Made by a program: the position numbers and the translations under genes. A stretch of DNA of 64,000 bases from Alphaproteobacteria bacterium SS10 (GTDB taxonomy: Bacteria; Pseudomonadota; Alphaproteobacteria; TMED2), in contig JAHCML010000006.1 in NCBI GenBank assembly GCA_019192455.1, positions 25 to 64,024 on the forward strand. Direction: 5' to 3'. Positions 24,228 to 46,494 of this stretch are shown here, piece by piece (within the stretch, counting starts at the first letter, position 1; the number at the start of each line of letters is the position of its first letter). The notes beneath the pieces are model-generated. The model did no database searches. It had not been told where the DNA came from and saw only the letters and a list, made by a program, of their open reading frames with translations.

Positions 24228-24233
24228 GGGCGC

Positions 24234-25244: not shown

Positions 25245-25293
25245 TGGCGCTAACACTTACTCTTGGCCGATTGGTGGTGCCAGGGCACCCGCA

Positions 25294-27099: not shown

Positions 27100-27116
27100 A
27101 CGCTAACGCCCCCTAC

Positions 27117-28397: not shown

Positions 28398-28442
28398 AAA
28401 GTGCCTCCTATTCGGTCCTAAGCTGCGCCCGGTCTTGCGCGA

Positions 28443-29063
28443 TCAACGCGCCGCGTCAGTGGTTTGAAGAATGATGGATTGTGGCGGCGGCGGTGGATCA
28501 CCGGTACGCACGCGTTCAACGGCCAGCACACTCGGCTGGCTGCCAGATGTCGCCAGGCGGTCATTACCGGCCAGATCAGCAGGGCGGGCGGCCATCCGGC
28601 CAATCTGCTTATCCAGCGAACAACCAAGCGGTGAGCTCGCCTGCATTACATCTGGACAGTTGGGCAGCACCACATCCAAACGACGGAAGGTAGCGACAGC
28701 CCCATAGGGCTGGGCCGCGACGCCGGTGATGACAATGCGGTCACCGCTGATACCGGCATCCATGAATGCCATACGCAGCATGCGGGCATAGCGCTCTCGC
28801 TGATCACTGCTCTCGGTCGCCACAATCACATGGAGGCGGTTGCCGCCATGGCGATCATACTCATTGGCGATGGTCTTAACCGCCTGGAATAGGTCATCAC
28901 CGCCAGCCTCAAGCACCGGCTCAGGGATGGCCATCCGCTGGGCGCTTGGGGCCAGGTCCAGATACTGGTTTGGCGTGACGGTTTGATACTTCTCCTCAAC
29001 CCCAGCGCAGGCAACAATTACACCGCAGAAGAGTAAGGCGAGGCAGGCACGCAGATATTCCAT
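28443..29063 (-). CDS. cpaD: CpaD-type pilus assembly lipoprotein
   Basis: 206 aa. Lipobox 'IVACAG' is present. Operon position immediately downstream of the cpaC secretin supports the call. Confidence 0.7.
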   Translation of the reverse strand: MEYLRACLALLFCGVIVACAGVEEKYQTVTPNQYLDLAPSAQRMAIPEPVLEAGGDDLFQAVKTIANEYDRHGGNRLHVIVATESSDQRERYARMLRMAFMDAGISGDRIVITGVAAQPYGAVATFRRLDVVLPNCPDVMQASSPLGCSLDKQIGRMAARPADLAGNDRLATSGSQPSVLAVERVRTGDPPPPPQSIILQTTDAAR

Positions 29064-29077
29064 GGTCTGATCCTCCT

Positions 29078-30562: not shown

Positions 30563-30610
30563 TAGCCGCCTTCCCTTCTTCCCCTAAAACTTACTACCGA
30601 TCAGTACCGC

Positions 30611-31504
30611 TCAATTGGTCAGCCGGACCCGCTGAACTGAGGATCCGTGATAGACCCGCACCGATGGCCCCGTGCCCGCAGACACGTAATCCTCACCGCC
30701 TGCCTCGGCTAAAGCGTTCAACCGCGCAGCCTGGGTTGCAGCTTGCAACGCTTTGGCAATACCGATGTCAGACGTGAACTTTTGACTATCTGGCCGACCG
30801 GCATCGAGGACCTGATCCGCGCTCAACGCCCGCAAGGACAGGCTTAGATCGCCCATCTGCTGTGCCAGGGTTAGCTTCTCCGCCTGCTCCTGGGTGACTG
30901 CAACGGTGACAGAGCGCGCTGGCGCTGCATCCCGGCTATCCGTCACCACCTGATCAACGGCGAGGATGCGAATGCGCTCCAGGACAGTTTCAGAGGCATG
31001 GCGGGCAACAACGGTCTGTGCGGCTTGACGATCTTCACGGTCACCTTCAATGCGCACACTGTAGGTCATCAGGACATCAACGAAGTCACCCGGGCGGACA
31101 AAACCACCGGCTGAGGTTGTAACGGAGACAGGGATGCTGATGGCACGCTGATTGGGCTCCAACGTAGCGGCCAGGAAACCAGCATCCTTATCCTTGGAGA
31201 CCAGCATGCTGGGGAAGATTGGCTCCCCCTCCAATACGGAACGGCGGAGGCGCATATTCTCAAGATTATCGACAATCTCATCACCCTTCCGGATTGCATG
31301 GCGTGGCACCAGCTCAGCCGGCCAATCCTCCCAGGTGAAATCTCCCGTGCCGAGGCCGGCGCCTGTACCCAGATTCTCATCGGCGATCATCACCGGGACC
31401 TTGGGCAGTTCAGCGGGGGCTTCCTCGCCGCTATTGCCGAGGGCCAGAACAATCATGCCAACACCGGTGCCAATTCCGATCAGTAGTGCCATGCCACGAC
31501 GCAT
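30611..31504 (-). CDS. cpaB: Flp pilus assembly protein CpaB
   Basis: 297 aa with an N-terminal TM segment. The SAF/RcpC-like pattern is present. Operon position supports the call. Confidence 0.85.
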   Translation of the reverse strand: MRRGMALLIGIGTGVGMIVLALGNSGEEAPAELPKVPVMIADENLGTGAGLGTGDFTWEDWPAELVPRHAIRKGDEIVDNLENMRLRRSVLEGEPIFPSMLVSKDKDAGFLAATLEPNQRAISIPVSVTTSAGGFVRPGDFVDVLMTYSVRIEGDREDRQAAQTVVARHASETVLERIRILAVDQVVTDSRDAAPARSVTVAVTQEQAEKLTLAQQMGDLSLSLRALSADQVLDAGRPDSQKFTSDIGIAKALQAATQAARLNALAEAGGEDYVSAGTGPSVRVYHGSSVQRVRLTN

Positions 31505-31517
31505 CGTTGCTCCTCCG

Positions 31518-32024
31518 TCAGCTCAATAGGGTCAAAATGTTTGGGATGGTCATGGCCAGCGCGCCAGCGGCGATCGCCACACCATAGGGAACGCGCCGCA
31601 TGCCAAAGCGGAAGCCGCCATCAATACCCACACCTTCCAGCCAAACCGGCAGCGGGCGGGTAGCGGATAGCAGAACAACAACTGAGAGAACGCCGCCGGC
31701 AATTGCCATCGCGATAACAAATGGCAGCGCCAAGGTTGGACCAAATAGCAGCATCAAGGCACTGATCAGCTTGCCGTCACCAGCACCCAGCCAGGTGCGT
31801 GTGAACATGAAAAAGCACACTAAGAAGGCTGCCGCCGCAACGCCGAGATGGCCGATCACCGCTCCCATTGGAATAACCCCGGTGATAACAGCCAGCGGAA
31901 ACAGGCCAGCGGTTAGCATCACCAAGCGGTTGGGAATTCGGAAGCCGCTAATGTCGTACCAGGCAGCCGCTACTACGGCAGCGCTGATCAGCAGGCTAAT
32001 GGCAATCGGAAACAATTCCGGCAT
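31518..32024 (-). CDS. cpaA: Prepilin peptidase CpaA/TadV (A24 family, short form)
   Basis: 169-aa polytopic membrane protein. The track start 32027 is TTG. The ATG is at 32022-32024. It lies immediately downstream of flp. Confidence 0.85.
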   Translation of the reverse strand: MPELFPIAISLLISAAVVAAAWYDISGFRIPNRLVMLTAGLFPLAVITGVIPMGAVIGHLGVAAAAFLVCFFMFTRTWLGAGDGKLISALMLLFGPTLALPFVIAMAIAGGVLSVVVLLSATRPLPVWLEGVGIDGGFRFGMRRVPYGVAIAAGALAMTIPNILTLLS

Positions 32025-32078
32025 CAATCAAGAACTCGCAAAGGTTGTTCGGTGGCTATTCGCAAATCTGGAAACTAG

Positions 32079-32110
32079 AAGCCCGGGCCCCTGAAGCAGG
32101 CGACCCGGGC
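32079..32110 (-). terminator. Hairpin (candidate attenuator/partial terminator) between flp pilin gene and cpaA
   Basis: gcccggg(c)cctg-aag-cagg(cga)cccgggc imperfect GC-rich hairpin. On the minus strand it is followed by the U-rich 'ttctagtttccagatttg'. Confidence 0.4.
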
Positions 32111-32146
32111 CAATAGTGTGGTCGTTAAACCGTTTGGGTGATGGGC

Positions 32147-32353
32147 TTAGGTGCCATCACCACCGCCGCCGCCACCGCCGCCAGCTTGGGCGCCTTGGAC
32201 TTCTTCAGCGATACCGGTGAATGTCTCTTCGAGGGCCGGGCCAAGTAGCTGCAAGCCGCCGAGAACGGCCAATGACACCAGCGCCACAATTAGTCCGTAT
32301 TCAATTGCTGTGGCACCATCTTCTTGTGCCAAAAACTGTCTTAATGACGTCAT
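32147..32353 (-). CDS. flp: Flp/Fap family type IVb pilin with C-terminal poly-Gly tail
   Basis: 68 aa. Flp motif 'G|ATAIEYGLIVALVSLAVL' is present. The C-terminus is '…AQAGGGGGGGGDGT', encoded by a (GGC/GGT)8 repeat at 32157-32183. Confidence 0.85.
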   Translation of the reverse strand: MTSLRQFLAQEDGATAIEYGLIVALVSLAVLGGLQLLGPALEETFTGIAEEVQGAQAGGGGGGGGDGT

Positions 32354-32647: not shown

Positions 32648-33361
32648 TCAGCGTTCGGTGTTACCGCTGGCATCACCAAGGCCACCAGCGCTCGGGTTCA
32701 TCCCGGCTTGTGGGGCTGGTGCCACTTGTGGCTGGGCACGCGACATGGCGGCCGCACTAACCCGTTGGAACGCGGCAACCCGCTTATCAATCGCGACCGA
32801 GGGACCGGCATCAAGTGCGGCCTCATATGGGACCTGCCGGATACCAGCTGACATCGCCTGCTTCATATCGCGGACAGCGGCGATGGTTTTGTTAAGCGCC
32901 TGCTCAAGGTGTTTACCTTGCTTCTCGCGCTTTTTAACTTCCTTACCAGCTTCACCGATCGCCTTCTTGACCTGTTTGGCGGCATTCTTGAAGCCATTGT
33001 CTTTTCGAAGGCTGTTCCAAATACCGAATAGCTGCTCTCGGCTGTTCCAAAGCGCCTCATCCTCGGCAGAGGCAGCGCCCTTCTTCTTCCGGCGTTTCTT
33101 CGGCTGGCCGGTTTCCAAATCCTCTGGCTTTGCCTCCCCATCCCGCACGCGGTCAAAGCGGTCTTCTGCTTCCTGGAGCTGACCCTCAGACCAAATCTTT
33201 GCCAAACGATGGGGATTGGACAGGCGGCGATCGGCACGGCGACCGACATAGCTTAACTGGTCTTGGTTCCTATCAGCCTCACGCTGAATCTCGCCAACCA
33301 GACGGGTGGCTTCCTCAACCACCTTATAAAGCTCGATATTCTTGCCTTGAGGTTTCGCCAT
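32648..33361 (-). CDS. Hypothetical highly charged protein (Lys/Arg/Glu-rich, KKRRKKKG patch)
   Basis: 237 aa with ATG at 33359-33361. No recognisable domain. It lies immediately upstream of the flp promoter and downstream of a radical SAM gene. Confidence 0.5.
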   Translation of the reverse strand: MAKPQGKNIELYKVVEEATRLVGEIQREADRNQDQLSYVGRRADRRLSNPHRLAKIWSEGQLQEAEDRFDRVRDGEAKPEDLETGQPKKRRKKKGAASAEDEALWNSREQLFGIWNSLRKDNGFKNAAKQVKKAIGEAGKEVKKREKQGKHLEQALNKTIAAVRDMKQAMSAGIRQVPYEAALDAGPSVAIDKRVAAFQRVSAAAMSRAQPQVAPAPQAGMNPSAGGLGDASGNTER

Positions 33362-33386
33362 AACCGGGCACCACGCCTAACTACCG

Positions 33387-34637
33387 TTAATAGAGAACGG
33401 GCGCCGCATCACCGGTAATGGCGCGAATGCGGGGCTGATTCTCTAGCACCCAGTTAACGTAACGGCTGGCGCCGAAACAATCATCATCGGCGCGATTATC
33501 CTTCCAAAACTCCATGATGCATTTGTCGCTGTGGTCGCACTCCATGCATTCAGGGTTCTGGTTACGCAGCACTTGCCGGCGCAGGTAACGACGGCGCGCT
33601 GGTGAGGTCAGGATCTCTTCAAAGTCCTGCTCAAAAATATTGCCAAACTCGCGCATGAACTCTTTCCAGCCATCGCGGTAGTCCGGCAGGACAAAGTCGC
33701 CATTGGGCAGCAGGAACAGCGTCTGGCCAGCGATATTGGCCAAATGCGGTGTCTCGGCCTGGTGGGCGATGAAGCGCATCTGCCCGATCTCTGGCGCCGG
33801 CACGCCATCCTTGCGCAGCTTCAGCCAGTACTCGGACAGCCCGATCATGAAGTCGCTGTATTCATTCATGCGCGGAGCAAAATCACCGTAAGCGCCCGTG
33901 GAGTTCTGATCATTCCACATGAAGGGAAGCCAACTGGTTTCCGCCACACCGATATCGGTGAGGTAATCCAGGGTTTCTTCCGGCCCCTGATCAATTAGCT
34001 CACGGTTAACAACGCTGATCGTTGAGAGGCGTAGACCGGAATTCACAACCGCGCGGGATCGTTCATCCCATTTGCGCATATAGCCCTTACCGCGCATAAG
34101 GCCGTCGTAAGAGCTTTGAACCTCGCCCTCACCATAACGGTCAAAGAGGGCAAACCAATCATCCTTCACCCCAACCAGGGCAGTCAGAACGGTATGCTTG
34201 GTCCGATATCCTTCAGCTTCTGAGAAGACGCCATTGATCGCGTCAGCCGCACTGGTGAAATAATCCTGGCCCATAGAGGTCGGCTCACCGCCATACCAAT
34301 AGCCCACCACGGTTTTCTGGGCGATCTGCTGGTCACGGTAGTATTTATCGACCTTCTCACAGGTCATCCGCAGGTTCTCGACCGTCATCACGGTCTTATC
34401 CTTGCGTTGCTCAAGGCTGAGGTAGCAATGCGGACAGCGGAGCTTACAAAACAAGCTCGGCATCAGCGTGAAGATGAAGTAACCCTGCTCAATACTCACC
34501 AATTGGCGTTGATCGCCGGTCCCGCTTAAGGGGGATGGCGCGACGCCAGGCATGGGCTGGGGCGTGTTTAAGCCAGTTTCAGCAAGGAAAGGGCTATTGC
34601 TTAGCTGTGGGGTTGGTCCACCAAACGACACTGTCAT
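33387..34637 (-). CDS. Radical SAM/SPASM domain protein (anSME/peptide-maturase-like), paralog 4
   Basis: 416 aa. 'CKLRCPHCY' = CX3CX2C at residue ~64. C-terminal Cys cluster 'NPECMECDHSDKC…DDDC' is consistent with SPASM/twitch auxiliary Fe-S clusters. Confidence 0.85.
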   Translation of the reverse strand: MTVSFGGPTPQLSNSPFLAETGLNTPQPMPGVAPSPLSGTGDQRQLVSIEQGYFIFTLMPSLFCKLRCPHCYLSLEQRKDKTVMTVENLRMTCEKVDKYYRDQQIAQKTVVGYWYGGEPTSMGQDYFTSAADAINGVFSEAEGYRTKHTVLTALVGVKDDWFALFDRYGEGEVQSSYDGLMRGKGYMRKWDERSRAVVNSGLRLSTISVVNRELIDQGPEETLDYLTDIGVAETSWLPFMWNDQNSTGAYGDFAPRMNEYSDFMIGLSEYWLKLRKDGVPAPEIGQMRFIAHQAETPHLANIAGQTLFLLPNGDFVLPDYRDGWKEFMREFGNIFEQDFEEILTSPARRRYLRRQVLRNQNPECMECDHSDKCIMEFWKDNRADDDCFGASRYVNWVLENQPRIRAITGDAAPVLY

Positions 34638-34654
34638 GTCAGACCGGTCACCCG

Positions 34655-35368
34655 TTAAGCAGGTTGCTGATCGGTTTCGCCACCGTCAGCGGGTCCACCA
34701 TTACCCGAGTACTGATCGACCAGATCTTTCGCACAGGTTTTGGTGAATTCGTGGATTTGAGCGGTCATACGGCGCGCAAACGCCTTGAACTCTGCCTCAC
34801 CACCGAAGATGGCATAGATGTCCGCACGCAAACGATCCTTAAACGCGATCGTAAAGTCGGCATCTGACAGCGCCGACAGCCGTTGCAGGATATACGGGTC
34901 ACTCACCTCAAACTCATGATCGTCGCCGAGCAAGGTTTCGACGAAGAGATACTCGATGAAGTTCGTAACCGGCGCGAGGAACTGGCCAAAGTTGCTTTGA
35001 CCAAAATAAACCTCAGCGAATGCTTTCAATCGTTCGAAATAGGCCTGGTCTGCCTCGTCGCTGCGTTCTACCGGCGGCAGTAGAGAGAGGGAAAAGCCGG
35101 CATTAGCGGCGACGGAGACCATGTATTTCGGATCGATATCTGACTGCTCTGCTGGGATTTCCAGCACAACCTCAACGCCTGCGAGACCATAAGAGATGAT
35201 GACATCCATCAAGGTTTCGTCGATATCCCCATCCTCACCTTTGAAGATCAGGGAGATATGCTTGAGGTCAGCCGGTGGCGAGAAACTATCAACGTCAACC
35301 TCAACACCGTAGTGGAAAGGCTGGGCCGACAACTCCGCGTTATCGACAATCTCACTGAGAGCAGTCAT
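34655..35368 (-). CDS. Hypothetical acidic protein (possible partner/chaperone of the radical SAM system)
   Basis: 237 aa, rich in Asp/Glu (pI clearly acidic). No recognisable motif. ATG at 35366-35368. It is sandwiched between the precursor candidate and radical SAM paralog 4. Confidence 0.55.
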   Translation of the reverse strand: MTALSEIVDNAELSAQPFHYGVEVDVDSFSPPADLKHISLIFKGEDGDIDETLMDVIISYGLAGVEVVLEIPAEQSDIDPKYMVSVAANAGFSLSLLPPVERSDEADQAYFERLKAFAEVYFGQSNFGQFLAPVTNFIEYLFVETLLGDDHEFEVSDPYILQRLSALSDADFTIAFKDRLRADIYAIFGGEAEFKAFARRMTAQIHEFTKTCAKDLVDQYSGNGGPADGGETDQQPA

Positions 35369-35405
35369 TCAGCAATCACCAAACAAATAGAATGATGGTT
35401 ACGCG

Positions 35406-35933
35406 TTAGCGCCAACCGCGAGAGCCGTGGCAAGCACCGTGGCACGCACTGTGGCAGTTGCTGTAGCAGCTAAAGCTGTTGATCGTGCCCGACTGGCTCA
35501 ATAGACCACCCGTCGCACCGCCGCCGCCGCCGAGGACCGCATCACCACCGCCAGTCACCTGGCCGCCGACACCACTCTCATTCTGCGCGACCTGCCACTC
35601 ACCAATCGACTTGCCGTCGAAATACTCGTCGGCGATGGACTTGCCGTCGAAGGTTAGGTTGCTGGTGAAGATGTCCAAGCTTTCGCTGACCGCTTCACGA
35701 ACGCTGCGCTTGCTGACAGCGCTAGCAATGGCACGGTCAAGCTCATCGGACACGCCCGTGTCCGTGCTGACTTCAACAGCCTCATAGCTGGCCGCATGCG
35801 CAATAGCGCTGGTGGCGATTAGGGCCAAAGAGGTCGAAACGGCGACCGGGCCAACCTTAATGGCTGACTTCTTGGCTGTGCTGCTATCACCCGAACCATT
35901 GGATGGGTTTGGCATCTGGATATCGTCTGGCAT
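35406..35933 (-). CDS. Candidate modified-peptide/protein precursor: signal-peptide-like N-region, duplicated FDGKSI(A/G)(D/E) motif, Gly-rich linker and C-terminal Cys/His-rich tail
   Basis: 175 aa. Strong SD 'agagggggg' sits 6 nt before the ATG at 35931-35933. Hydrophobic segment 'VGPVAVSTSLALIATSAIAHA|AS' is signal-peptide-like. 'LTFDGKSIADEYFDGKSIGEW' is a duplicated motif. The C-terminus is 'GGGGGATGGLLSQSGTINSFSCYSNCHSACHGACHGSRGWR'. An AT-rich intergenic region with promoter-like elements lies upstream. Confidence 0.6.
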   Translation of the reverse strand: MPDDIQMPNPSNGSGDSSTAKKSAIKVGPVAVSTSLALIATSAIAHAASYEAVEVSTDTGVSDELDRAIASAVSKRSVREAVSESLDIFTSNLTFDGKSIADEYFDGKSIGEWQVAQNESGVGGQVTGGGDAVLGGGGGATGGLLSQSGTINSFSCYSNCHSACHGACHGSRGWR

Positions 35934-36095
35934 TGTGCCCCCCCTCTAGAACTGCCTTACATCATCCGAACAGCAAAAAACGACCAAAATCCGGATGGAT
36001 TAAAACTAACTACCACCAACAATACACGATTTATAAATATCTCGCACGAAATTACCTGATCACAAATACGCGCTTTGAGGCATTTTGCGGCGGTT

Positions 36096-37211
36096 TTAGG
36101 CTACATCTTCGTGTGATGGCGCTGCGACCAAATCCCAGGTCTGCTGGAACAAACGCTGCCCACCTGAGCACTCACCGGACCCATCATCGTAAAGGCTCGC
36201 CAAACAGCCAGAGGAGCAAACCTTACGGAACTGGCAGGTTTGGCAGTCCCATTGGCGCTCTGCCCGCGCTTGCTCATAGTCACCAAAGGCAAGTATTTCG
36301 GTCGCGCGCTTATTATCGATCTCAGACGTAACGGCAGTACAACCGGCCTTGTAGCCATTAGCATCGATCGTGTGGAACTTAGTGTCGCAACTACCAGACC
36401 AACAGCCATAGCCCCCGGCTTCACCGGCCTGAAGACGATTAATGCTCTGAATCAGACCATCTAGCGGCGAGACATGTAGACGATCGCTCGCCTCCACTTG
36501 TTCGCGCGTCTCACAATAGCGCCAATAGGCCCGCATAAAGCGGTTCATCGCGGCGCTGTATTCAGCATTATTCAGGCCAACGCGGTCCCAGTTCTCTCGC
36601 GCGTAGCCGGTTTTGGTGACACGCTCGAGATGTACACGGCGTACACCTCGCTCTTCCATCATCTGGAAGAACCGATAAGGGTCGCGGAAATGCTCAACAA
36701 AGGTACGGGTAAAAGTCACGACCATATAGGGGTCGAGGCCATCAGCTAGCAGCCGCTCAAAATTATTCCAGAACCGAGATTCATAAACCTCGTTGGATTG
36801 CCGATCATTGGCGCGTAACAGCCGAATTTTGGGGTCCCAAGACACCCCAACCTCGCCGCCAAAGTACTTCTTGTAAACCGGGATCCAAGGATCGCCATAG
36901 GTCATCAGGTTGGTCTGGATACCGTGCTGCCATTGATAGTCGCCACCAGCGGCCTCAACCGTATCAATCGCTTCCGCAAGCCATTCAGCACCGAAGATTG
37001 TCGGCTCACCACCATGCCATTGCAGCAGGATATTCGAGCCCTTCGGTGCGAACTTGGTCAGCTGCTCTGGGATCGCGGCCAGATCATCCTTACCCATCTT
37101 CTTGGGGTTGGAAGGAATAAAGCAGTGCTCGCAATGAAGATTGCAGCCCTCAAAAACCCGAACGTAAACCAGGTGGTCAAAGGCTGGGGCGAAAGGCAAA
37201 CGTCCACTCAT
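36096..37211 (-). CDS. Radical SAM/SPASM domain protein, paralog 1
   Basis: 371 aa. 'CNLHCEHCF' = CX3CX2C at residue ~23. C-terminal 'GCWSGSCD…GYKAGC…CQTCQFRKVCSSGC' is SPASM-type. Confidence 0.85.
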   Translation of the reverse strand: MSGRLPFAPAFDHLVYVRVFEGCNLHCEHCFIPSNPKKMGKDDLAAIPEQLTKFAPKGSNILLQWHGGEPTIFGAEWLAEAIDTVEAAGGDYQWQHGIQTNLMTYGDPWIPVYKKYFGGEVGVSWDPKIRLLRANDRQSNEVYESRFWNNFERLLADGLDPYMVVTFTRTFVEHFRDPYRFFQMMEERGVRRVHLERVTKTGYARENWDRVGLNNAEYSAAMNRFMRAYWRYCETREQVEASDRLHVSPLDGLIQSINRLQAGEAGGYGCWSGSCDTKFHTIDANGYKAGCTAVTSEIDNKRATEILAFGDYEQARAERQWDCQTCQFRKVCSSGCLASLYDDGSGECSGGQRLFQQTWDLVAAPSHEDVA

Positions 37212-38419
37212 GCCGCTGCCCCTTCCTTGGTCTTATCGCCTGCCTTATCCGCGGCCGCTGCACCGTCGGTATCAAGCCCAGCCTGAGCGGCAGCATAGAT
37301 ATTGCTCGCGGCACTGAATTTCTCGCGAAGCGCTAAATCCAGATCCAAATAGGCAAGCAACGGTGCCTGCCCGCGATCCGTAATGAACTGCCGGATATGG
37401 GTCAGGAATGTTTTGTAGCCGGAGCACTCCACCTCACCATCTGGAACACCATTCGGTGTGATGGGGCAGCCAGAGTGGCACCAATTGCTGTTCTCACAAC
37501 CATGGCAATGGTCCCGCTTATGGCCATAGCTCTGCATGCGAAGCCATTTGCGCCGGAACGAATTCTTGGCAAAGCCTTGGAAGCCACCTTCCACATTGCC
37601 GTAATTCTCTTCCACCGTTGATTTATCCGGGCAATTATTGAGGGAGCCATCTGGCTCAACAACCACGAAGTCAGACTGGCAGGTGGTGCCCCAACGATCA
37701 CCAGGCGCCTGGAACAGCACGCCCATAATGCCGGCTTTCACAGCGCCGATGATTGGCGCCTTACCATCCCGCTCCATCCGCTCCATCACGGCATCAAAGA
37801 GGCCCATGAGGAAGTAGGAGTGCTCAAGGTTATTGGGACGATCATCAAAATACGTCTGATAGGAGTTGTAGCGGTCCAAATTGACCACCTCGAACTCGCG
37901 CTCAACAAACCAATCTACTAGCTCTTGCTCGCGGCCCAGCTCCTGCCGTGTCGGCACAACGCCAGGCACCACATTGATCCCATCACCGCGCACGCGCTCA
38001 ACCTTTTGCATCCAAAGCTTGTGGTAGTTCTCCACCGAGCCCTTGATCTGCCGTTGGCTGAAATCAATTGAGGAGCCAATCTCACGGCCACAACGCTCAA
38101 TCACCCAATCGCGATACTCATCACGCCATGGGATAAGGGATGTTTGGATCGCCTGGAAGTTATCGGGCAGGACCTTGTCCAACACCTCACCCGCTTCCCA
38201 GTACCATTCAACTGGAACCGTTAGCGGCTCACCACCATGCCAGAGGACGAGCGACGCATCCTTGCGCTGGGCCTTCTGCATATCGGCGATCAGGGTGCCT
38301 GCCTTGGCCAGCACGTCATGGCTCATCCGGAATTTATTGGCGCGCACGATCTCCGGCAGGTAGCAATGGGTGCATCCCACATTGCAGTAATTTGTCGGCT
38401 TCACATAAGCGACAATCAT
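37208..38419 (-). CDS. Radical SAM/SPASM domain protein, paralog 2
   Basis: 403 aa. 'CNVGCTHCY' is present, plus C-terminal 'CPDKS…CHGCENSNWCHSGC'. It overlaps paralog 1 (ATGA) and paralog 3 (ATGA), suggesting translational coupling. Confidence 0.85.
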   Translation of the reverse strand: MIVAYVKPTNYCNVGCTHCYLPEIVRANKFRMSHDVLAKAGTLIADMQKAQRKDASLVLWHGGEPLTVPVEWYWEAGEVLDKVLPDNFQAIQTSLIPWRDEYRDWVIERCGREIGSSIDFSQRQIKGSVENYHKLWMQKVERVRGDGINVVPGVVPTRQELGREQELVDWFVEREFEVVNLDRYNSYQTYFDDRPNNLEHSYFLMGLFDAVMERMERDGKAPIIGAVKAGIMGVLFQAPGDRWGTTCQSDFVVVEPDGSLNNCPDKSTVEENYGNVEGGFQGFAKNSFRRKWLRMQSYGHKRDHCHGCENSNWCHSGCPITPNGVPDGEVECSGYKTFLTHIRQFITDRGQAPLLAYLDLDLALREKFSAASNIYAAAQAGLDTDGAAAADKAGDKTKEGAAA

Positions 38420-39573
38420 GCGGCGATCTCGCGGTTCAGGTTGCGCTTGCGGCGCACCTCCTCGGGGTCCAGGCCGTATTTGCGGATGGCGCCATCCGCC
38501 TCACCATTGCGCACGGTCTCTTTGATGCGGTCAAAGACCATCATCCAAGCATGGCAGTAGTGGAACTTGCCGCCCAGCCCATGATTGTACAGCACAGCAT
38601 CGCGCATGCAGCCGCCCTCACACTCACCGAAGTGGCGGCAGCTTTGACAATCGAGCGGAAGGTCGACGCGACGACGGCGGATCATGGCGGCCGCCCGTGA
38701 TTTCATCAGCTCCGGAATGGTCATCTCATTGAGATTGCCAAACATGAACTCTGGATCGCCCAAATCCGCAAACTCTGAGCAGTTATAGGTATCGCCATTC
38801 GGCTCCAGGCCCAGGAAATGACCGCCGCAGGATCTGGTCCAGGGGCAGCGATTAACCTCAAGGGCAATCACCTTCTTCAGCATCTCATCGAGCGGGGTAA
38901 TGACGAAAACCGGCAGGTCTACGATCCAGCGCTCATAAAGCTCAAGCAGCATCGTGCCGTAATCATGGGGGCTAATCATTTCCCCATTACCCTCATCCCG
39001 CCCCGCCGGATACCGGTAGTTGAAGCGGAGATGCGGCGCCTTATCGCCATAGGCTAGGCTACGGTCATACATCTCATGCGCCATGGGCGCGGTTTCGGTG
39101 GTGTAGGTGCCAATGATCTTCGGATAGAAGCCATCGTCGAGCACCTCCTCTAGCCGCTTATAAAACAGGCGGGTGTAGAGGGCTGCCGAGCCCTTATAGA
39201 TGCGGTTGGTTTCATCCGGATCGAAGGATGTTGAGACCGAACCGTTGAAGATGTCTTTAAAGACGTCATACCAACGGTTGTGGTTATAGCTCAGCAGGTT
39301 CGTCTGGATTGAGAAGTTGATGTTGGGGTTCTGCGCCTTGGCATACTCCCAAGCCTGCTCATAGAAGTCAGGGCCAAGCAGCATGGGCTCACCGCCATGC
39401 CAGATAATGTAAGCCTGGTCGGTTAGATGCGGGCCAATCTTATCGAAATACCGCTTAAAATCGTCAATCGACCATTTCGGCACCCCGTCAGGGGGCGCAC
39501 TGCAATAGGTACAGGCCGCATTACAAACCTTCGTTGGTTTGGCGATTACGGTAGAGATCATGCCTAACCCCAT
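38416..39573 (-). CDS. Radical SAM/SPASM domain protein, paralog 3
   Basis: 385 aa. 'CNAACTYCS' is present, plus C-terminal 'CPWTRSCGG…CSEF…CQSCRHFGECEGGC'. Confidence 0.85.
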   Translation of the reverse strand: MGLGMISTVIAKPTKVCNAACTYCSAPPDGVPKWSIDDFKRYFDKIGPHLTDQAYIIWHGGEPMLLGPDFYEQAWEYAKAQNPNINFSIQTNLLSYNHNRWYDVFKDIFNGSVSTSFDPDETNRIYKGSAALYTRLFYKRLEEVLDDGFYPKIIGTYTTETAPMAHEMYDRSLAYGDKAPHLRFNYRYPAGRDEGNGEMISPHDYGTMLLELYERWIVDLPVFVITPLDEMLKKVIALEVNRCPWTRSCGGHFLGLEPNGDTYNCSEFADLGDPEFMFGNLNEMTIPELMKSRAAAMIRRRRVDLPLDCQSCRHFGECEGGCMRDAVLYNHGLGGKFHYCHAWMMVFDRIKETVRNGEADGAIRKYGLDPEEVRRKRNLNREIAA

Positions 39574-39671
39574 CCCTTCCCCAATATGACGCCCTCCATT
39601 TGAGCGTTGGTCCGACTGACCTCGGCAACCACCAAAACACTAGCGGTTGCTTAAAAATTTCCCCAATTTCA

Positions 39672-39723
39672 ACAGGATAAAAGAAATGAAAACGGGCGAC
39701 CAGCATTTTCGGCCTGGTCGCCC
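39672..39723 (-). terminator. Rho-independent terminator after the giant pilin-like gene
   Basis: Perfect 10-bp inverted repeat gggcgaccag / ctggtcgccc (39694-39703 and 39714-39723) with a 10-nt loop. On the minus strand it is followed by 'gttttcatttcttttatcc'. Confidence 0.6.
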
Positions 39724-39765
39724 GTCACATAAATGTTTGCTCGCCCTAACCCACGGGCAATCGCA

Positions 39766-42700
39766 TTACAGCTGGCAGTAAACCGTCACAACCGCAACGC
39801 CGTTTGTCATCTGACGCCATGGTGCCAGATCATTCTTCTGACGCGCTTCCATGACAAGGGTGCCACCGCCGGTCATATACACACGACCCTGGGTGTTGTT
39901 GTCATAGTCACCACCGGCAAGCTCAGTACCATCAGCTGGATTGATGTCGTCGATATCGGTAACGCGAATGACGTCATCCTGGGCCGTACCGGCACCATCA
40001 CCATCCTGAAGCTGCGTGATACGGGTCTGCGCAATCATGACCGGCGTCACCCACCATGCTGGGGTTGCAGCGTAGAAGATGGTGCCTGCGCCACCACCCG
40101 TTGGGGTCAGGCAGCGATTTCGAAGCGTTGCACTAACGGTTTGACCATCACTTAGGACCTCAACGCCAGAAACAATCAACTGCTCTGAGACGTTGGTGTC
40201 GCTCAACCAAACATCACGGCCGCGAAGATAGATATCATCAACGTCCAGGTAAGACTGATCAGCACCAAGTGGTGATGCACCGACCAGCGCACCAGCACCA
40301 AGCTTCAAGGCACCATCGGCCGCAGCTGATTCAGTAAAGAACCGCATCCGGTTTCCACCGGCAGCATTGTTCACAATGAGCGATGGCTGGGCGGCATCGC
40401 TCTCACCGCGCAAGACCACACGGTTGGTACCTGCCTGATCAAGGATCCGAACGACATTCCGGGTCGCATTTGAGACGATCTGCATCGTGTCGGTCGCTTG
40501 ACCATTATTGCGAATACCGAAGGTGTTGTTGCCATCGGAGTAAGCAATCCGACCGTCATAGTCCGCGCCGAGTGAACCGGTCCCCTTAAAATCAATGAAG
40601 GAGGTTTGGTTGTTACCGCTACCGATCTCAACACCGCCATCATTTGGATCAACGAGGAAATAGCCACCTGCGGTTGGCGTATTCGCATCAGCAGCGGACA
40701 GGCGGAACTGACCATTGTTGCTGTTCACGATTGCACGCTCGACACCATCAGCAGCACGCCAGTCCTGGACCCCGCTTGCGGTGTCAAATTGGCGCCGAAG
40801 GTTACCGGCAGCATCGTTCAACCGCTCTACACCTGCAGCGGCGTCGGTCTCGAATTCATAACGAACCGTTCCGGCAGTATCACGAACCCGAACAAACGCG
40901 CTGTTACCAGAACTCACAAACTGATTGCGGTTCCGGCCAGCTGAGTCAGACATAACCACATTGGTATCAGTGGCATTATAAATGGCAGCGAGACGATTAT
41001 TGGTACCGTCCGAGAACACCAGATTACCATCGGCACCAAAGTAGTCGGTACGGAACCGGTCATTAGCACCGTCATTCAACTCCAAGCGCCCCGAGCCCGC
41101 CCCATAGTTAGCGGCAAAGCGTGAGTTCGCGGCTGTATCGTTCCCAATGGCAATCTGACCCGTTGTTGCATCGTAATCAGCAAGAAGCCGGCGGGAACCG
41201 CCATCATTCATCGACAAGCGACCCGTGAGGGCAGTGTAGTTGGACACGAACCTAGGATCGACACCGGTTGTGTCATTACCAATAGCAATCTGACCTGTAC
41301 CCCCAGTGTAGTCGGCAAGCACGCGCTGGTTGCCACCGACATCGGCCAACTCGACACTACCGGTTGCAGCGTCATACTGGTTCATCACCCGTTGGGTCGC
41401 CCCATCATCACGCATGATGTTCTGACCAACATTCCCATCATACCGAGAGACAAAACGCTCTGCATCCGCAGCCTGGTTGACTTGATCGCGAACTCCAAAT
41501 CGACCAGCGGTTGGGCTGTCATATTGCTGAACAAAGCGCTCAACGCCGGTTTCGTCACCAACACGAACCAAACCACGAGCGTTGCTAGCGGCTGTACCAG
41601 CAGCATCGAGGCCAAACTCTGACCGCAGACGCTCGTTATTCGCATTGTCGCGCATAACGAAGGTGCCGGCCTCTGGAATGACGCCGTTACCGGCACGGTT
41701 CTGGCCATAATCGAACTGCACACGATCCCGGACACCACTGGCATCGGTCATGGTGAAGTTACCAGCATCAGGGAGAACGTTACCGGCACGGTCAAAGCCG
41801 TAATCCAGACGCATCCGCTCTTGCAGGCCGTCGTTGAAGAACGTCACGCCCCGGGCGTTACCACCTTCAGAGGTGTAAGACGTCTGGGCACGTGGGGCCG
41901 CAGCAACACCATCGCGAAGGGTAATGTTACCGGCAGTTGGCTCACGAGCGTTCAGCTCATCAAGCCCGTAATTCAGCTCAATCCGGCGGGTTGCCAGGGC
42001 GCCGGTATCGGTACCCGCGCTGATTTGGCCAGCTTGGCTGCCCGTATCGTCAAAGGTGAAGTTCCCACGCTCTATGTTGGCCGCATCATAAAGCTTAAAG
42101 CCTGGGTCGGTAGATCGAACACCAGCGGCTGGTGCCACCAGTGCGACTTCAACACCATCCACATCGAGGCCGGAATCCAGAATCGCACGCTGACCATTCG
42201 GTAGGGCACGATTTGCAGCCTCAACCCGCTGCTGGGCGCGGACACGCTCTTCAGCATCGACGAAGCCAAAGATTGCATCACCACCAACGATATTCACATT
42301 GCCGCGGGCGTAAGCAGCGTTGGCACCAGTCTGGTTGTCGTTACCAAATCGAATGACGTTCTCATTCGTTCCGGCCCCAACAGCTGGATCGAAGTTACTA
42401 TCCAGTTCACCATCAGCGTTCAAATCAACACGCGGCGCTGCAGCCGGGGCAAACACGGCAGGTGCCGGCAGTGGCACTGTATTTGTCTGGAGGCCGTTTT
42501 GCCCAACTTCCGGGTTGCCATCCTGGGCGAGCGCAGCACCATTCAGCGGCGCACCAATTTGGGCCACGTTGGCCAGGCCAAACTCACCCATATTGATGTT
42601 GGCATTCATCTGCTGGGCTTCTGGCTGCCCTGGAATGCTGTTCCGGTATAGGAAGTCGGCAACGACGCCACCTTCACCAAAGAACGCCATGGCGGCTAGG

Positions 42701-43338
42701 CCACCACGTTCTGGTGGAACACCGAGATCTGCGTTATCCAACTCCCAACCACCGAACGCACCATAGGTGGTGTTATCGGCATACACCCCAGAGACATCAG
42801 AGCCGAAACCAAGTTCGGTCGGGTCAGCAGCACGCCAACCGGCGTCGGCGCCAACGGCAGCCGCGATCTGGGCCGCAGTTGTCGGCTCAATATGTTCATA
42901 ACTGCCGGTGCCGTCATCCTCGGACACCACCTGCACCCGCAGACGCTCACCGCCAATGTTCAAAACATATATATTGAGGTCGTGGCCAAAGGCGTTCTTG
43001 CGGATATCCGCGCCATCAAAGAAACGGGGATCCAGATAACCATCAAGAGCATCATCATCCAACTGCTGGGCCGCACCGCCGGCAACCGGGTCACCGATAT
43101 CGGCATTACCGCCATCGATGATGTCGCCATAATTATCGATAACGTACGCGGCGGCGGCATCACGAACAGCGGCCAATTGCTGTGCCGTTTGTTCAGCCTT
43201 AACGCGCCGGAGGTTATCAACCTGCAGATTAGCAATCGCGCCAAGCCCAATACCAAGGGTTGCAACGCCCAGTATCGCTTCAGTCAAGCTGATACCGCGC
43301 TGCCCAAGAGGCTTTTGAGAGTTAATTTTTTTACTCAT
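39766..43338 (-). CDS. Giant type IV pilin-like protein with tandem degenerate ~22-aa repeats (putative pilus-associated adhesin/fibre)
   Basis: The track start 43353 is TTG. ATG at 43336-43338 with SD 'gaggga'. N-terminus is MSKKINSQKPLGQRG|ISLTEAILGVATLGIGLGAI: a 15-aa basic leader ending in Gly, Glu at +5 and a ~20-aa hydrophobic helix, i.e. a class III (prepilin) signal. There are ~1190 aa in total. The central ~450 aa are repeats of the form …R..(A/V).Y(D/G)..TG…..D(G/T)..N(R)… . Confidence 0.8.
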   Translation of the reverse strand: MSKKINSQKPLGQRGISLTEAILGVATLGIGLGAIANLQVDNLRRVKAEQTAQQLAAVRDAAAAYVIDNYGDIIDGGNADIGDPVAGGAAQQLDDDALDGYLDPRFFDGADIRKNAFGHDLNIYVLNIGGERLRVQVVSEDDGTGSYEHIEPTTAAQIAAAVGADAGWRAADPTELGFGSDVSGVYADNTTYGAFGGWELDNADLGVPPERGGLAAMAFFGEGGVVADFLYRNSIPGQPEAQQMNANINMGEFGLANVAQIGAPLNGAALAQDGNPEVGQNGLQTNTVPLPAPAVFAPAAAPRVDLNADGELDSNFDPAVGAGTNENVIRFGNDNQTGANAAYARGNVNIVGGDAIFGFVDAEERVRAQQRVEAANRALPNGQRAILDSGLDVDGVEVALVAPAAGVRSTDPGFKLYDAANIERGNFTFDDTGSQAGQISAGTDTGALATRRIELNYGLDELNAREPTAGNITLRDGVAAAPRAQTSYTSEGGNARGVTFFNDGLQERMRLDYGFDRAGNVLPDAGNFTMTDASGVRDRVQFDYGQNRAGNGVIPEAGTFVMRDNANNERLRSEFGLDAAGTAASNARGLVRVGDETGVERFVQQYDSPTAGRFGVRDQVNQAADAERFVSRYDGNVGQNIMRDDGATQRVMNQYDAATGSVELADVGGNQRVLADYTGGTGQIAIGNDTTGVDPRFVSNYTALTGRLSMNDGGSRRLLADYDATTGQIAIGNDTAANSRFAANYGAGSGRLELNDGANDRFRTDYFGADGNLVFSDGTNNRLAAIYNATDTNVVMSDSAGRNRNQFVSSGNSAFVRVRDTAGTVRYEFETDAAAGVERLNDAAGNLRRQFDTASGVQDWRAADGVERAIVNSNNGQFRLSAADANTPTAGGYFLVDPNDGGVEIGSGNNQTSFIDFKGTGSLGADYDGRIAYSDGNNTFGIRNNGQATDTMQIVSNATRNVVRILDQAGTNRVVLRGESDAAQPSLIVNNAAGGNRMRFFTESAAADGALKLGAGALVGASPLGADQSYLDVDDIYLRGRDVWLSDTNVSEQLIVSGVEVLSDGQTVSATLRNRCLTPTGGGAGTIFYAATPAWWVTPVMIAQTRITQLQDGDGAGTAQDDVIRVTDIDDINPADGTELAGGDYDNNTQGRVYMTGGGTLVMEARQKNDLAPWRQMTNGVAVVTVYCQL
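40600..42050 (-). repeat. Intragenic tandem degenerate repeats (~66-69 nt unit) in the giant pilin-like gene. Coordinates are approximate.
   Basis: Protein-level periodicity is present (…ADYTGGTGQIAIGNDTTGVDPRFVSNYTALTGRLSMNDGGSRRLLADYDATTGQIAIGNDTAANSRFAANYGAGSGRLELNDGANDRFRTDY…). Boundaries were estimated from residue positions, not computed. Confidence 0.5.
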
Positions 43339-43362
43339 TTCCAAATCCCTCAAACGAGAAGG

Positions 43363-44262
43363 TTAATCGCAGAAACCATCGTCAAATTCATCGCCGGTCC
43401 CCGGCAGCCCATCGGCACCAAGAACATCATCGGCTTTCTTACACACCACGTAAACCGGCACCCCATCAGGGATTAGGTTGTTCCCACCACGATCGACGAG
43501 CGGAATGTTCACGATCGCTGAAATCTCATTCGCATCCAGCGTACCGTGATCCATCGCATCATCTGGCGGATTTTGCAGATCAAAGGAACGGGCCAGCTGA
43601 ATGTGCTCAACCCCACGACGGGTTAATGTACCACCATCATTGATGCCGAAGTTAACCGTACCATTGAATGCCCGGCGAAACCCCTTAGCGAAATCATCAA
43701 CGCTGACCGTCTCCAGAAAGTTCTGCCCGCCAGGTGTGCGCGGCACGTTTTCGACAAAACCGATAATTGCCGCCACTTCACCAGTACCGGCGCCTAGGGC
43801 ATCAACCTGCTCAATAACAGCGACACGCCATGGGCCGTCCGCCGTATAGTTGGTTGGCAAAAACCGACGAACAGGATCCGCAGGCCCGAGAAAAGCCGGA
43901 TCAGTTACCGCAGCGTCTGCGTAGTCGGAATTGGTCAGGAACGTCTCGAAATCGGCGACATCCATTACCCAATAACCAGCACTTGGGTTACCGGGATCGG
44001 CAAGCTCAGCCGCAATCTCAGTCTGTGCAAGGGCAATTGGCGGACCGGGAATAGGCCAGGTGCGTTGATCAATCGCATAAGTTGAGAGGGCCGACTCAAC
44101 CGAAGCCACAAACCGGGCCATGTCACGGCCTAGACCGTGAGAGTAGGCATCATGCGGCTTCTCATAAACCAGGGGAGCATCACCTGGTGATTTCGCTTGG
44201 AATGGGTTGCTCAACGATAGGTAAAACGCGGCAACCACTAAGGCGATCAACAACGCATACAT
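43363..44262 (-). CDS. Hypothetical N-terminally membrane-anchored protein
   Basis: 299 aa. ATG at 44260-44262. N-terminus 'MYALLIALVVAAFYLSLS' is a TM segment. It ends 10 bp before the giant pilin-like gene. No known domain recognised. Confidence 0.55.
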   Translation of the reverse strand: MYALLIALVVAAFYLSLSNPFQAKSPGDAPLVYEKPHDAYSHGLGRDMARFVASVESALSTYAIDQRTWPIPGPPIALAQTEIAAELADPGNPSAGYWVMDVADFETFLTNSDYADAAVTDPAFLGPADPVRRFLPTNYTADGPWRVAVIEQVDALGAGTGEVAAIIGFVENVPRTPGGQNFLETVSVDDFAKGFRRAFNGTVNFGINDGGTLTRRGVEHIQLARSFDLQNPPDDAMDHGTLDANEISAIVNIPLVDRGGNNLIPDGVPVYVVCKKADDVLGADGLPGTGDEFDDGFCD

Positions 44263-44551: not shown

Positions 44552-45181
44552 CTATCCCGCGCCGCAATATTCCTGCGACAGACAGATGACGATGGCGGGG
44601 GCGTTTTGGGTCGTTTGATCGAATGGCAGCCCGCGCAAACGCCCAAAACCACGCTCAACCCCAGGATGGGTAAAACTGTCGGTTAACAGGGAGCCTTGGC
44701 TAAGCAAACCAACCGTTACTTGGCCACCAGCGGTCAGTCGAAGGCCCCTCGCAATATCAACGGGCCGCATGGTTCGCGGCAGATTTGCCTGGTTCACATA
44801 GGCAACCACGGCGCCAATGCCTGGATCCGTTTCGGTGGCGGCAACCCCACTTCCCGCCTCCTTCACCGGCAGAAGATAGGCACGCCATGGCATTGTTGGG
44901 TTGTAAGAGGCTGGCAAAACCGGGGCATAGCGTGGGTTTTGATCCAGGGTCGCGACCGTAACGGCGTTCGGATAACGCGGCAAACTCTCCGGAAACTGGT
45001 TCAGCCGCGCCATTACAGCCTCGGCAAATACCGACAGGCTATGGGCGTGCACCTCCGCCTCCGCGGTTGATGCGGCCGCCGGTGGGTTCATAAAGGCAAG
45101 CTCGTCAAACGCCTCCCGGTCGGCTGGCAACATAAGCAGCACGAACAGCGAAAACATAAGAGAGATCATGACCGGATACAT
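44552..45181 (-). CDS. Hypothetical N-terminally membrane-anchored protein
   Basis: 209 aa. ATG at 45179-45181. N-terminus 'MYPVMISLMFSLFVLLML' is a TM segment. It is the first gene of the minus-strand block. Confidence 0.55.
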   Translation of the reverse strand: MYPVMISLMFSLFVLLMLPADREAFDELAFMNPPAAASTAEAEVHAHSLSVFAEAVMARLNQFPESLPRYPNAVTVATLDQNPRYAPVLPASYNPTMPWRAYLLPVKEAGSGVAATETDPGIGAVVAYVNQANLPRTMRPVDIARGLRLTAGGQVTVGLLSQGSLLTDSFTHPGVERGFGRLRGLPFDQTTQNAPAIVICLSQEYCGAG

Positions 45182-45378: not shown

Positions 45379-46494
45379 ATGGCGATCCTAGGCCGCACAC
45401 AGCTTATCCCAATTTCGACCGGCAATCCCGGCGCGCACCAGCCGCTTGCGAGCGATTTTCCTGAGATGGTGGTGCTCTGCAAAAAGGATGAGGATGGGCA
45501 GTCCGTCTTTCCCAACCGGAAAGAGTTCTATGATGCCGGTAAAGAGGGGCGGATGGAGATGGCGACCGAGCCTGCCATGACCCTCGATGATCACCTAACC
45601 GCCTTCCTCGCCGATCAAACCCATGCGGATCAGAAGCTTAAACTGATGGCCGCAACGGTTATCTCACGGCTGACCGACCGTGGGGCCTTCGATGTCCCTG
45701 GCAAACCGGCGGTTGAGATTGTGGTGCCGCGTAAGGCCGCCACCGATGGCAATATCGCGGCCGTTGTTCTGGGTGAGCATGTCGCCGACCGCCTAACCAG
45801 GCTGGCCCCTCAGATTGAGTGGAGCGTGGCCTATGATGTGGTCCATCAGGCACCAGAGAACGTCACCAAACGCGAAGGCGCGCGGCGCGATCCAAGCTAC
45901 CGTAAGGGCAAGCTGTACATGGCGCCGGACAGCTTCTTTGCCGATGACCGGGCGAAGTATGTAGTCGCGGTTGATGATGCGACCCGGTATGGCGGGTCAT
46001 TCCGCGATCTAGACCTATTCGCCAAGCAAGGCGGTAAAGAGCTGTTGGCGGCCGCCGTCTTTGAGGCTTATGAGACCACCGATCTGCGCCCAACCGCGCA
46101 AAACATTGCAAAGCTGCGCAAAGCTTTTGGTCCGGAAGGTCTTGCCCAGCTAGACCAGAGCCTGCATGCGGTGAACCTAAATGTCAGCGTGCTGACCAAC
46201 GCAGAGGTTGAATTCTTTGCCGAGGGCCCAATCCCAGGGCTCGAGCAGGCCGGATCACGGGCAGAGGCGGCTATCACCTATCTTGCAGAGGAAGCGGCCA
46301 ACCGGCAGGAGCCCATGGTTCTCCGCACCTCCGACCCATTTGTGCAGTCTGTCGCGAATGGTGAAACCGCGCGCGTCTCGCGGCGCCCCGCGCTGGCTGG
46401 TGCCAAACCAGAAATCGCTGACAAATCAGCGCCTAAGGCAAGCCAAAGAGCTGAGGGCGGCCCTGCCTTCGGTGGCGGCCCGGTCCCCGCCTAA
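45379..46494 (+). CDS. Hypothetical protein
   Basis: 371-aa ORF with ATG at 45379. No recognisable motif. The C-terminus is Ala/Gly/Pro-rich. Confidence 0.5.
   Translation: MAILGRTQLIPISTGNPGAHQPLASDFPEMVVLCKKDEDGQSVFPNRKEFYDAGKEGRMEMATEPAMTLDDHLTAFLADQTHADQKLKLMAATVISRLTDRGAFDVPGKPAVEIVVPRKAATDGNIAAVVLGEHVADRLTRLAPQIEWSVAYDVVHQAPENVTKREGARRDPSYRKGKLYMAPDSFFADDRAKYVVAVDDATRYGGSFRDLDLFAKQGGKELLAAAVFEAYETTDLRPTAQNIAKLRKAFGPEGLAQLDQSLHAVNLNVSVLTNAEVEFFAEGPIPGLEQAGSRAEAAITYLAEEAANRQEPMVLRTSDPFVQSVANGETARVSRRPALAGAKPEIADKSAPKASQRAEGGPAFGGGPVPA

Follow-up and report, generated by a model that had tools for sequence, protein, structure and literature searches.

We analysed a stretch of 64,000 nucleotides from the metagenome-assembled genome (MAG) of Alphaproteobacteria bacterium SS10, taken from a 457-kb contig (JAHCML010000006.1) and referred to below as the window. 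A gene on its minus strand (39766..43338, stop codon included) encodes a protein of 1190 amino acids (aa), which is probably a PilV-family minor pilin of modular build and giant size, of the tip adhesin type; we put the probability of this reading at about 0.6. By sequence comparison, residues 13-260 share homology with the constant part of PilV, which serves as minor pilin and tip adhesin in conjugative type IVb pili (thin pili) of the IncI and PAPI types. BLASTP aligns residues 13-281 with a 436-aa PilV of a Pseudomonas MPF_I plasmid (E = 5e-24, 31% identity). Comparison of the family profile with PilV by hhalign gives 99.6% over columns 4-264, from the leader through the (Y/F)LYRN..G.PE..MN..I motif; in the giant protein the globular PilV domain ends with FLYRN.(I/V)PGQPEAQQMNANI. 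The isolated N-terminal 300 aa match Pfam Shufflon_N (PF04917) with 29.2 bits against a cut-off of 27.5 (E = 8.3e-7). A tblastn search with the first 300-314 residues in a collection of 72,556 plasmids, which does not include R64 (AP005147), found matches in 94-97 plasmids, nearly all of the matches listed being annotated pilV. The mature pilin module (residues 16-262, 42553..43293, minus strand), as delineated by BLASTP, hhalign, Pfam, tblastn and an AlphaFold2 (AF2) model, would consist of helix alpha1 with Glu(+5) followed by the globular PilV constant (Shufflon_N) domain. The AF2 helix covers residues 18-68, and strands are predicted in the same module. Full-length scans of the protein against Pfam, NCBIfam and PHROG gave no match; in particular, no TadE-like or TadG N-terminal domain was found with Pfam or NCBIfam.

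The start of the gene is preceded by a Shine-Dalgarno box GAGGGA (43346..43351, minus strand), read directly from the sequence, with a spacer of 7 nt to the ATG codon at 43338. The protein deposited at NCBI for the same MAG (KI792_10285) is identical to the window open reading frame (ORF), with 100% identity and coverage. Since it also has 1190 aa, this ATG is accepted as the start, and not the TTG codon at 43353 given in the mechanical ORF list. The initial annotation, made from the letters of the window, had taken the ORF to be real and had proposed the same start, and both points agree with the Shine-Dalgarno box and the NCBI protein.

The N-terminus, MSKKINSQKPLGQRG|ISLTEAILGVATLGIGLGAI, has a basic leader of 15 aa (43294..43338, minus strand) with Gly(-1) at its end, Glu(+5) and then a hydrophobic stretch, so that the class III prepilin signal recognised in the initial annotation is indeed present, with its hydrophobic helix. 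The same annotation had named homologues lacking G-xxxx-E as a sign that the resemblance was coincidental. All eight full-length homologues keep Gly(-1) and Glu(+5), G15 and E20 are invariant in the alignment, and the consensus at the cleavage site is (Q/R)(R/A/S)G|I(S/T)(L/M)(T/V)EAILG(V/I)ATLG. The leader length and the residue other than Phe at +1 are those of type IVb pilins. The N_methyl domain (PF07963 / IPR012902) is below the cut-off in the giant protein (E = 0.73, 10 bits against 21.2). Type IVb pilins often score under the N_methyl threshold, the motif being biased towards type IVa.

The approximately 930 residues after the pilin domain are made, judging from their sequence features, of a stalk, a fibre-type module and a head, the fold being predicted with modest confidence. 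A connector rich in Ala, Gly and Asn (residues 263-423, 42070..42552, minus strand) is conserved in the family, corresponds to no known domain and is poorly modelled. The repeat stalk (residues 424-860, 40759..42069, minus strand) contains about 18-20 degenerate units of 20-31 aa with the consensus R(F/V/L)xxxY(D/G/T)xx(T)Gxhxhx(D)xxGxx, each with a near-invariant Tyr or Phe, and the units are predicted to form beta-hairpins. In residues 420-880 there are 19 R-x4-[YFW] anchors, compared with 3.6 +/- 1.8 in shuffled sequences (maximum 10 in 1000), and the autocorrelation of the protein peaks at 21-22, 31 and 44 residues. A hidden Markov model (HMM) of nine units matches all scanned family members except P0010 and P0014, and no shuffled sequences. 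The initial annotation spoke of dozens of ~22-aa repeats over ~1150 residues, suggestive of a beta-helical or fibrous rod. The repeats are real, but their number is about 18-20, their length varies and they are confined to residues ~424-860, the remainder consisting of the globular PilV domain (residues 16-262) and of the modules at ~885-1190. The rod was roughly right in spirit, although the model suggests, with modest confidence, a ladder of beta-hairpins and not a beta-helix. The RHS/YD, MORN and beta-helix families were considered for the repeats and rejected, as none of their profiles matched the repeat region; the RHS_repeat and YD profiles gave no match on this region alone even at E <= 10.

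Residues 885-960 (40459..40686, minus strand) form a module of roughly 70 aa that also occurs in fibre proteins and has the motif GGY.xV.P.DGGxE(I/L)(G/A)SGN..S(F/Y)IDFKG.G.LGADY.GRI.Y.DG. Among ten proteins with this module that were scanned, three end in the Peptidase_S74 intramolecular chaperone of tail fibres, while collagen repeats occur in one and a pilin N_methyl motif in one. A further match, P0018, has a pilin-like N-terminus by eye. P0018 and P0025 are pilin-headed fibre proteins bearing the roughly 70-aa SGN..SYIDFKG module. The C-terminal domain (residues 1020-1190, 39769..40281, minus strand; LDVDDIYLRGRDVWLS ... VTVYCQL) is flanked by C1076 and C1188, the only cysteines of the protein, and is a candidate receptor-binding head. 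Identity between homologues is highest in alpha1 (67-80%) and in the pilin and C-terminal domains, and lowest in the stalk and the fibre module.

Compared with known systems, the giant protein resembles PilV of IncI1/IncI2 plasmids (R64, TP114) and PilV2 of the PAPI-1/pKLC102 type in the leader, alpha1 and the globular constant region, and its C-terminal part is the natural candidate for target recognition. Relatives of its gene are linked to traH-I-J-K/dotD-C-B-icmT and pilN-O-P-Q-R-S in a plasmid-like order. On the other hand, PilV proteins have about 430-475 aa. The PilV of TP114 has a constant part of 345 aa and 69-113 variable residues (PMC9045228), whereas in the giant protein the short variable tail is replaced by the stalk, fibre module and head. 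Unlike pilV, the giant gene is chromosomal, lies near housekeeping genes without a shufflon or Rci, and heads a block with four radical S-adenosylmethionine (rSAM) genes rather than ending a pil operon; no type IVb genes occur nearby in the window. Other large type IVb minor pilins are CofB of the CFA/III pilus of enterotoxigenic Escherichia coli and TcpB of the toxin-coregulated pilus (TCP) of Vibrio cholerae, which form trimers at the pilus tip, prime assembly and bind secreted partners. The giant protein has no detectable sequence relationship with them and is more than twice as long. A search of PDB sequences with the family profile yielded neither CofB or TcpB nor another relevant relative, and produced noise only (e.g. 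LapB).

Large size is unusual among type IV pilins, as the initial annotation had remarked. A survey of more than 1,200 modular type IV pilins, including S74-fused ones, found none larger than 860 aa (Raynaud et al. 2021, PMC8179133). These proteins likewise graft functional modules on a pilin module, and one relative described below, P0010, is an S74 fusion of the surveyed type. The giant protein exceeds 860 aa, and none of the modules grafted on it has a counterpart in Pfam or NCBIfam. A survey based on N_methyl would miss its type IVb PilV lineage, given the E-value of 0.73. With Peptidase_S74 tail fibres and fibre adhesins it shares the roughly 70-aa module (GGY..V.P.DGG.E..SGN..SYIDFKG...L..DY.GRI.Y.DG), but it ends in a different, Cys-bracketed domain. 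Its resemblance to YD/RHS, MORN and OspA-type beta-hairpin repeats comes from a model of modest confidence, and its register R-x4-Y-x4-5-G differs from theirs. With the Tad pseudopilins TadE, TadF and TadG it has in common a G|xxxxE-type site and, in the window, adjacency to tad genes; it differs from them by its PilV homology and by the lack of a TadE or TadG domain. Thus the giant protein is neither a Tad pseudopilin nor an RHS protein, but an extreme, enlarged relative of known PilV and modular pilins.

The family is very rare. Phmmer with residues 300-1190 in 1.84 billion cluster representatives retrieved 39 proteins at E <= 1e-3 and nine at E <= 1e-10, and most of the weak matches map to residues 885-960. 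A scan of GTDB genomes with the family alignment returned 120 pattern stretches, none of which was confirmed, and a GTDB scan with the highly conserved first rSAM protein retrieved just one MAG contig, of 3.7 kb. Every carrier is an uncultured MAG or a metagenome contig, and no carrier in culture came to light. One relative, P0010 (L004 10001-13057), from a plasmid-like or integrative and conjugative element (ICE)-like contig, combines Shufflon_N with a C-terminal Peptidase_S74 domain (1.2e-15) and PHROG tail-fibre matches, neither of which is present in the window protein. Chimeras of pilins and tail fibres thus occur elsewhere (P0010, P0018, P0025).

The giant pilin gene belongs to a conserved module of 11 genes, comprising the divergent p371, p209, p299, the giant gene, three rSAM/SPASM genes, a gene for a Cys/His-tailed protein, p237a, a fourth rSAM gene and p237b. 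The module recurs in loci L001, L002/L003, L006 and L008. At L007, p371 and p209 were not seen because the contig begins within p299, and L039 stops within the rSAM genes. The setting in the window is chromosomal; hisS, serA, purA, a gene for an rpoH-like sigma factor and rluD lie to one side, lpxK and kdtA to the other. The position of the module relative to purA, the rpoH-like sigma gene and rluD is the same in all loci that reach that far (all but L007). The rSAM block always lies 3' of the giant gene, and its proteins are 62-89% identical between loci, compared with 31-40% for the giant protein. The low identity of the latter, lowest in the repeats and the fibre module, agrees with rapid evolution of a surface protein.

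The clades differ in how the giant gene adjoins the rSAM block. In three sister-clade loci the stop codon of the giant gene abuts or overlaps the first rSAM start (L002 9899, L006 13144, L007 4159-4160). In the clade of the window there is a gap of roughly 190-220 nt with a strong hairpin (window 39574-39765, L001 13370-13588, L008 8667-8852), which suggests different transcriptional coupling. In the window this terminator-like hairpin follows the stop codon of the giant gene at 39691..39726 (minus strand) and has a 13-bp stem followed by a U-rich tract, UUUUCAUUUCUUUU. None of 200 shuffled sequences folds as well, and the hairpins 3' of the giant gene in L001 and L008 are comparable. A simple terminator scan missed it because of its 10-nt loop. 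The hairpin that the initial annotation reported as a strong terminator is thus real, but it is misleading to say that it sets the giant gene apart from the rSAM block, since the two form a conserved unit and abut in three loci.

What follows the module also varies. R64- and PAPI-1-type thin pili accompany I-type (Dot/Icm-like) type IV secretion and conjugation. In the sister clade, genes for DotD-TraI/DotC-DotB-IcmT-TcpQ come after the module. In L038, they are continued by genes for a PilN-like secretin, PilO and a 368-aa protein, then by those for a PilQ-like ATPase, a PilR-like platform protein and a major pilin of the PilS/bundlin type. The series from DotD to PilS (L038 8603-21159) is located about 7-11 kb 3' of the giant gene, and its gene order is that of traH-I-J-K and pilL-S in the Pseudomonas MPF_I plasmid, where the series ends in pilV. 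Together, the L038 genes correspond to a type IVb pilus of the R64 type and a Dot/Icm type IV secretion system. Three further sister loci show the Dot/Icm part only. The region past L002 was reached by looking up an identical DotB; a metagenome scan with the L002 DotB gave 28 loci, none with the giant gene or the rSAM module, although the L002 contig itself was not returned. The same cluster was found in L044 (8355-20748), a more distant alphaproteobacterial MAG without the module, where it ends at pilS with no pilV after it. The same chromosomal dot-pil order is also seen in L040 and L005. In L001 and L008, the module is followed by TraX-like genes.

Synteny in one contig, L038, thus shows that relatives have, as the cognate machine of the giant pilin, a chromosomal cluster for a type IVb pilus beside Dot/Icm genes. 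The leader of L038 PilS (..RQRQAG|LTLAE) resembles the leader of the giant pilin of the same genome (..RQIRQAG|ITLTE), and this similarity suggests that one peptidase may serve both. Since only Tad is visible in the window, either a type IVb pilus may be encoded elsewhere in this genome or Tad may have been co-opted; we favour the former.

Two genes upstream of the giant gene encode paralogous proteins (hhalign 97.1%). The p299 gene (43363..44262, minus strand) lies 24 nt from the giant-gene ATG; its product begins at Met1 with a transmembrane (TM) helix and has a pair of Cys at the C-terminus. The p209 gene (44552..45181, minus strand) encodes a PilM-like pilin-fold protein with a TM helix, a long helix, a five-stranded sheet and a C-terminal Cys pair. 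Neither protein has a G/E processing site, both beginning directly with the hydrophobic helix, and in predicted fold they are similar to the solved PilM, with a TM helix at the N-terminus and without a leader. Comparison of p209 and p299 with two PilM sequences by hhalign gave 0.2-1.7%, there was no Pfam match, and p209 was negative at the sequence level against the PilV domain and PDB sequences. With only 10 proteins, the p209 family equals that of the giant pilin in rarity. In pA506, pilM2 directly adjoins pilV2.

The following model can be suggested. A prepilin peptidase would remove the 15-residue leader after Gly15. Helix alpha1 with Glu5 and the PilV globular domain would then dock into a pilus, most likely at its tip, by analogy with PilV (PMC9045228, PMC5297154) and with CofB and TcpB (PMC6048534, PMC5207764). 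The two upstream PilM-like proteins probably act with the giant pilin in a priming or tip complex. The stalk of about 18-20 beta-hairpin repeats and the tail-fibre-type module would carry a disulfide-bracketed head, which may contact the target surface. In this lineage the giant pilin may serve a type IVb pilus coupled to a Dot/Icm-type system.

Several observations weigh against the identification of the giant protein as a PilV-type tip adhesin. The 64-kb window contains no type IVb pilus or Dot/Icm genes, and the adjacent machine is Tad. The full type IVb cluster was read in one sister-clade contig (L038), the other sister loci showing its beginning. Shufflon_N was not reported in full-length scans, and the isolated N-terminus passes its cut-off only marginally. 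The tip location, adhesion and target of the giant pilin are proposed by analogy. p209 and p299 are PilM-like at the level of the predicted fold, and the label is restricted to this level because the sequence tests against PilM and Pfam were negative. The full-length AF2 model is poor (mean pLDDT, the model's own confidence score, of 51), and the architecture of stalk and head is therefore tentative; residues 170-410, 635-790 and 970-1150 of this monomer prediction are too weak to interpret. Finally, neither shufflon-type (sfx-like) inverted repeats nor a recombinase (Rci) is present at the giant gene, and the hypothesis of a shufflon was rejected. However, PilV2 of pA506/PAPI-type clusters likewise has no adjacent recombinase, and thus the shufflon is not a universal feature of PilV.

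The most immediate alternative is that of the initial annotation, namely that the protein is a Tad-associated giant tip adhesin or pseudopilin. CpaA would cleave its leader, Tad would place it on Flp pili, and p209, p299 and the giant protein would stand in for TadE, TadF and TadG. Indeed, a complete Tad (type IVc) locus with flp (32147-32353), cpaA-F, tadB and tadC lies at 23274..32353 (minus strand), beginning about 300 bp past the last module gene, although it is a neighbour outside the conserved module. No recognisable tadE, tadF or tadG pseudopilin genes flank this tad operon. In line with the initial annotation, which took cpaA to be the sole prepilin peptidase gene in the window, a Pfam scan of nearly all ORFs of at least 150 aa found no other, CpaA being the only A24 peptidase in the annotated part; nor did the scan find any further pilus gene. 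A G|xxxxE site is formally compatible with peptidases of the TadV type, and the module ORFs are intact in a region that has no type IVb pilus genes. On the other hand, tad adjoins the module in only one of the six informative loci, that of the window; the tad genes are absent beside the module in L001, L002/L003/L038, L006, L007 and L008, where Dot/Icm or TraX-like genes and, in one case, a type IVb cluster are found. The pilin module is of the PilV type and not of the TadE or TadG type. The end of the leader and alpha1 are near-identical to those of relatives encoded beside PilS-type pili and unlike the local Flp (QEDG|ATAIEYGLIV). Further, the absence of a G/E site in p209 and p299 does not fit a role as pseudopilins, and the visible stretch is a mere 64 kb of the 457-kb contig. 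The Tad association proposed initially is thus not borne out by the other loci, and we consider assembly by Tad unlikely, if deserving of attention.

It is a good deal less probable that the giant protein is not a pilus subunit at all. In this case, its pilin-like N-terminus would anchor or prime a short pseudopilus resembling that of type II secretion systems, which would export the rSAM-matured Cys/His-tailed protein, or the giant protein itself would be the substrate of the four rSAM/SPASM enzymes. The joint conservation of giant gene and rSAM cluster wherever a locus is long enough, with abutting genes in three, is consistent with this. So are the resemblance of the rSAM proteins to maturases of repeated aromatic motifs, considering the near-invariant Tyr/Phe of the repeats, and the export of partner proteins via minor pilins of type IVb pili (CofJ/CofB, TcpF/TcpB; PMC6048534, PMC9565799). 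However, a more obvious substrate for the rSAM enzymes is the dedicated small protein whose tail has the invariant CY.NC.G.CHGACHGSRGWR pattern, the terminator-like hairpins of the window clade separate the giant gene from the rSAM genes, and the literature searched contains no link between rSAM enzymes and pilins. Moreover, such an export role is compatible with a tip adhesin rather than exclusive of it. Finally, the absence from the window of the Dot/Icm and type IVb neighbours of the relatives could mean that a conjugative or Dot/Icm island has been lost and that the gene is what is left of it, decaying and without a present function here. This is very improbable: the 1190-codon ORF is intact, with a good Shine-Dalgarno box and ATG, all 11 module genes are intact and syntenic, the N- and C-terminal domains are well conserved, and the same chromosomal position is kept across lineages while the giant protein has diverged to 31-40% identity. 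A pseudogene reading of the giant gene was rejected, as all module ORFs are intact and syntenic.

The block downstream of the giant gene (32648..39573, minus strand) consists of three rSAM/SPASM genes (38416-39573, 37208-38419 and 36096-37211), a gene for a 175-aa protein (35406-35933), p237a (34655-35368), the fourth rSAM/SPASM gene (33387-34637) and p237b (32648-33361), all on the minus strand. The 175-aa protein, about 150 aa in the module generally, has a signal-like N-terminus and the tail CYSNCHSACHGACHGSRGWR; the invariant C-terminal pattern is CY(S/Q)NC(H/Y)G.CHGACHGSRGWR. The products of p237a and p237b, each of roughly 237 aa, have no assigned function. In NCBIfam the rSAM proteins come closest to DynA, the anaerobic sulfatase maturase and cyclophane-forming enzymes, with scores that in each case fall far short of the curated cut-off; they resemble peptide maturases acting on repeated aromatic motifs.

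A conserved operon link between a pilin and four SPASM-type maturases is an unexpected element, for which no described precedent was found. A speculative extension of the PilV-type tip adhesin is that the giant pilin and the four enzymes form one functional unit. The enzymes would cross-link the Tyr/Phe repeats of the stalk, or mature the Cys/His-tailed protein, to be carried or exported by the pilus tip in the way of CofJ and TcpF; in this genome the PilV-type tip module may also have been transplanted onto a Tad machine. We regard this proposal as unlikely. If it were true, the pilus tip would bear a modified component similar to ribosomally synthesized and post-translationally modified peptides (RiPPs), and in any case the link of the pilin and rSAM genes in an operon offers a testable lead on post-translational chemistry at the pilus tip.

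It is the PilV adhesin that determines with which cells a conjugative or Dot/Icm-linked pilus is able to make contact. A pilin of almost three times the normal PilV size, with a repeat stalk of roughly 440 residues and modules of the tail-fibre type, widens the known range of modular pilins and suggests long-reach surface recognition in uncultured aquatic alphaproteobacteria. The window is also a natural test of whether a Tad machine can serve a type IVb minor pilin.

The remaining member of the module, p371 (45379..46494, plus strand), is divergent from the pilin operon and has no known function. It is kept in every locus reaching that far, with 38-53% identity, and its only domain match is a sub-threshold one to DUF6880. 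Beside the Tad locus there is a GST gene and, just beyond it, a gene for a tetratricopeptide repeat (TPR) protein, possibly TadD-like (21303-22583, plus strand). Between purA and the sigma factor gene, the window contains two overlapping genes (49074-51733, minus strand), one for a 692-aa protein whose only match, weak and partial, is to protein kinases, the other for a membrane protein of 193 aa, and the same pair is present in L001, L006 and L039.

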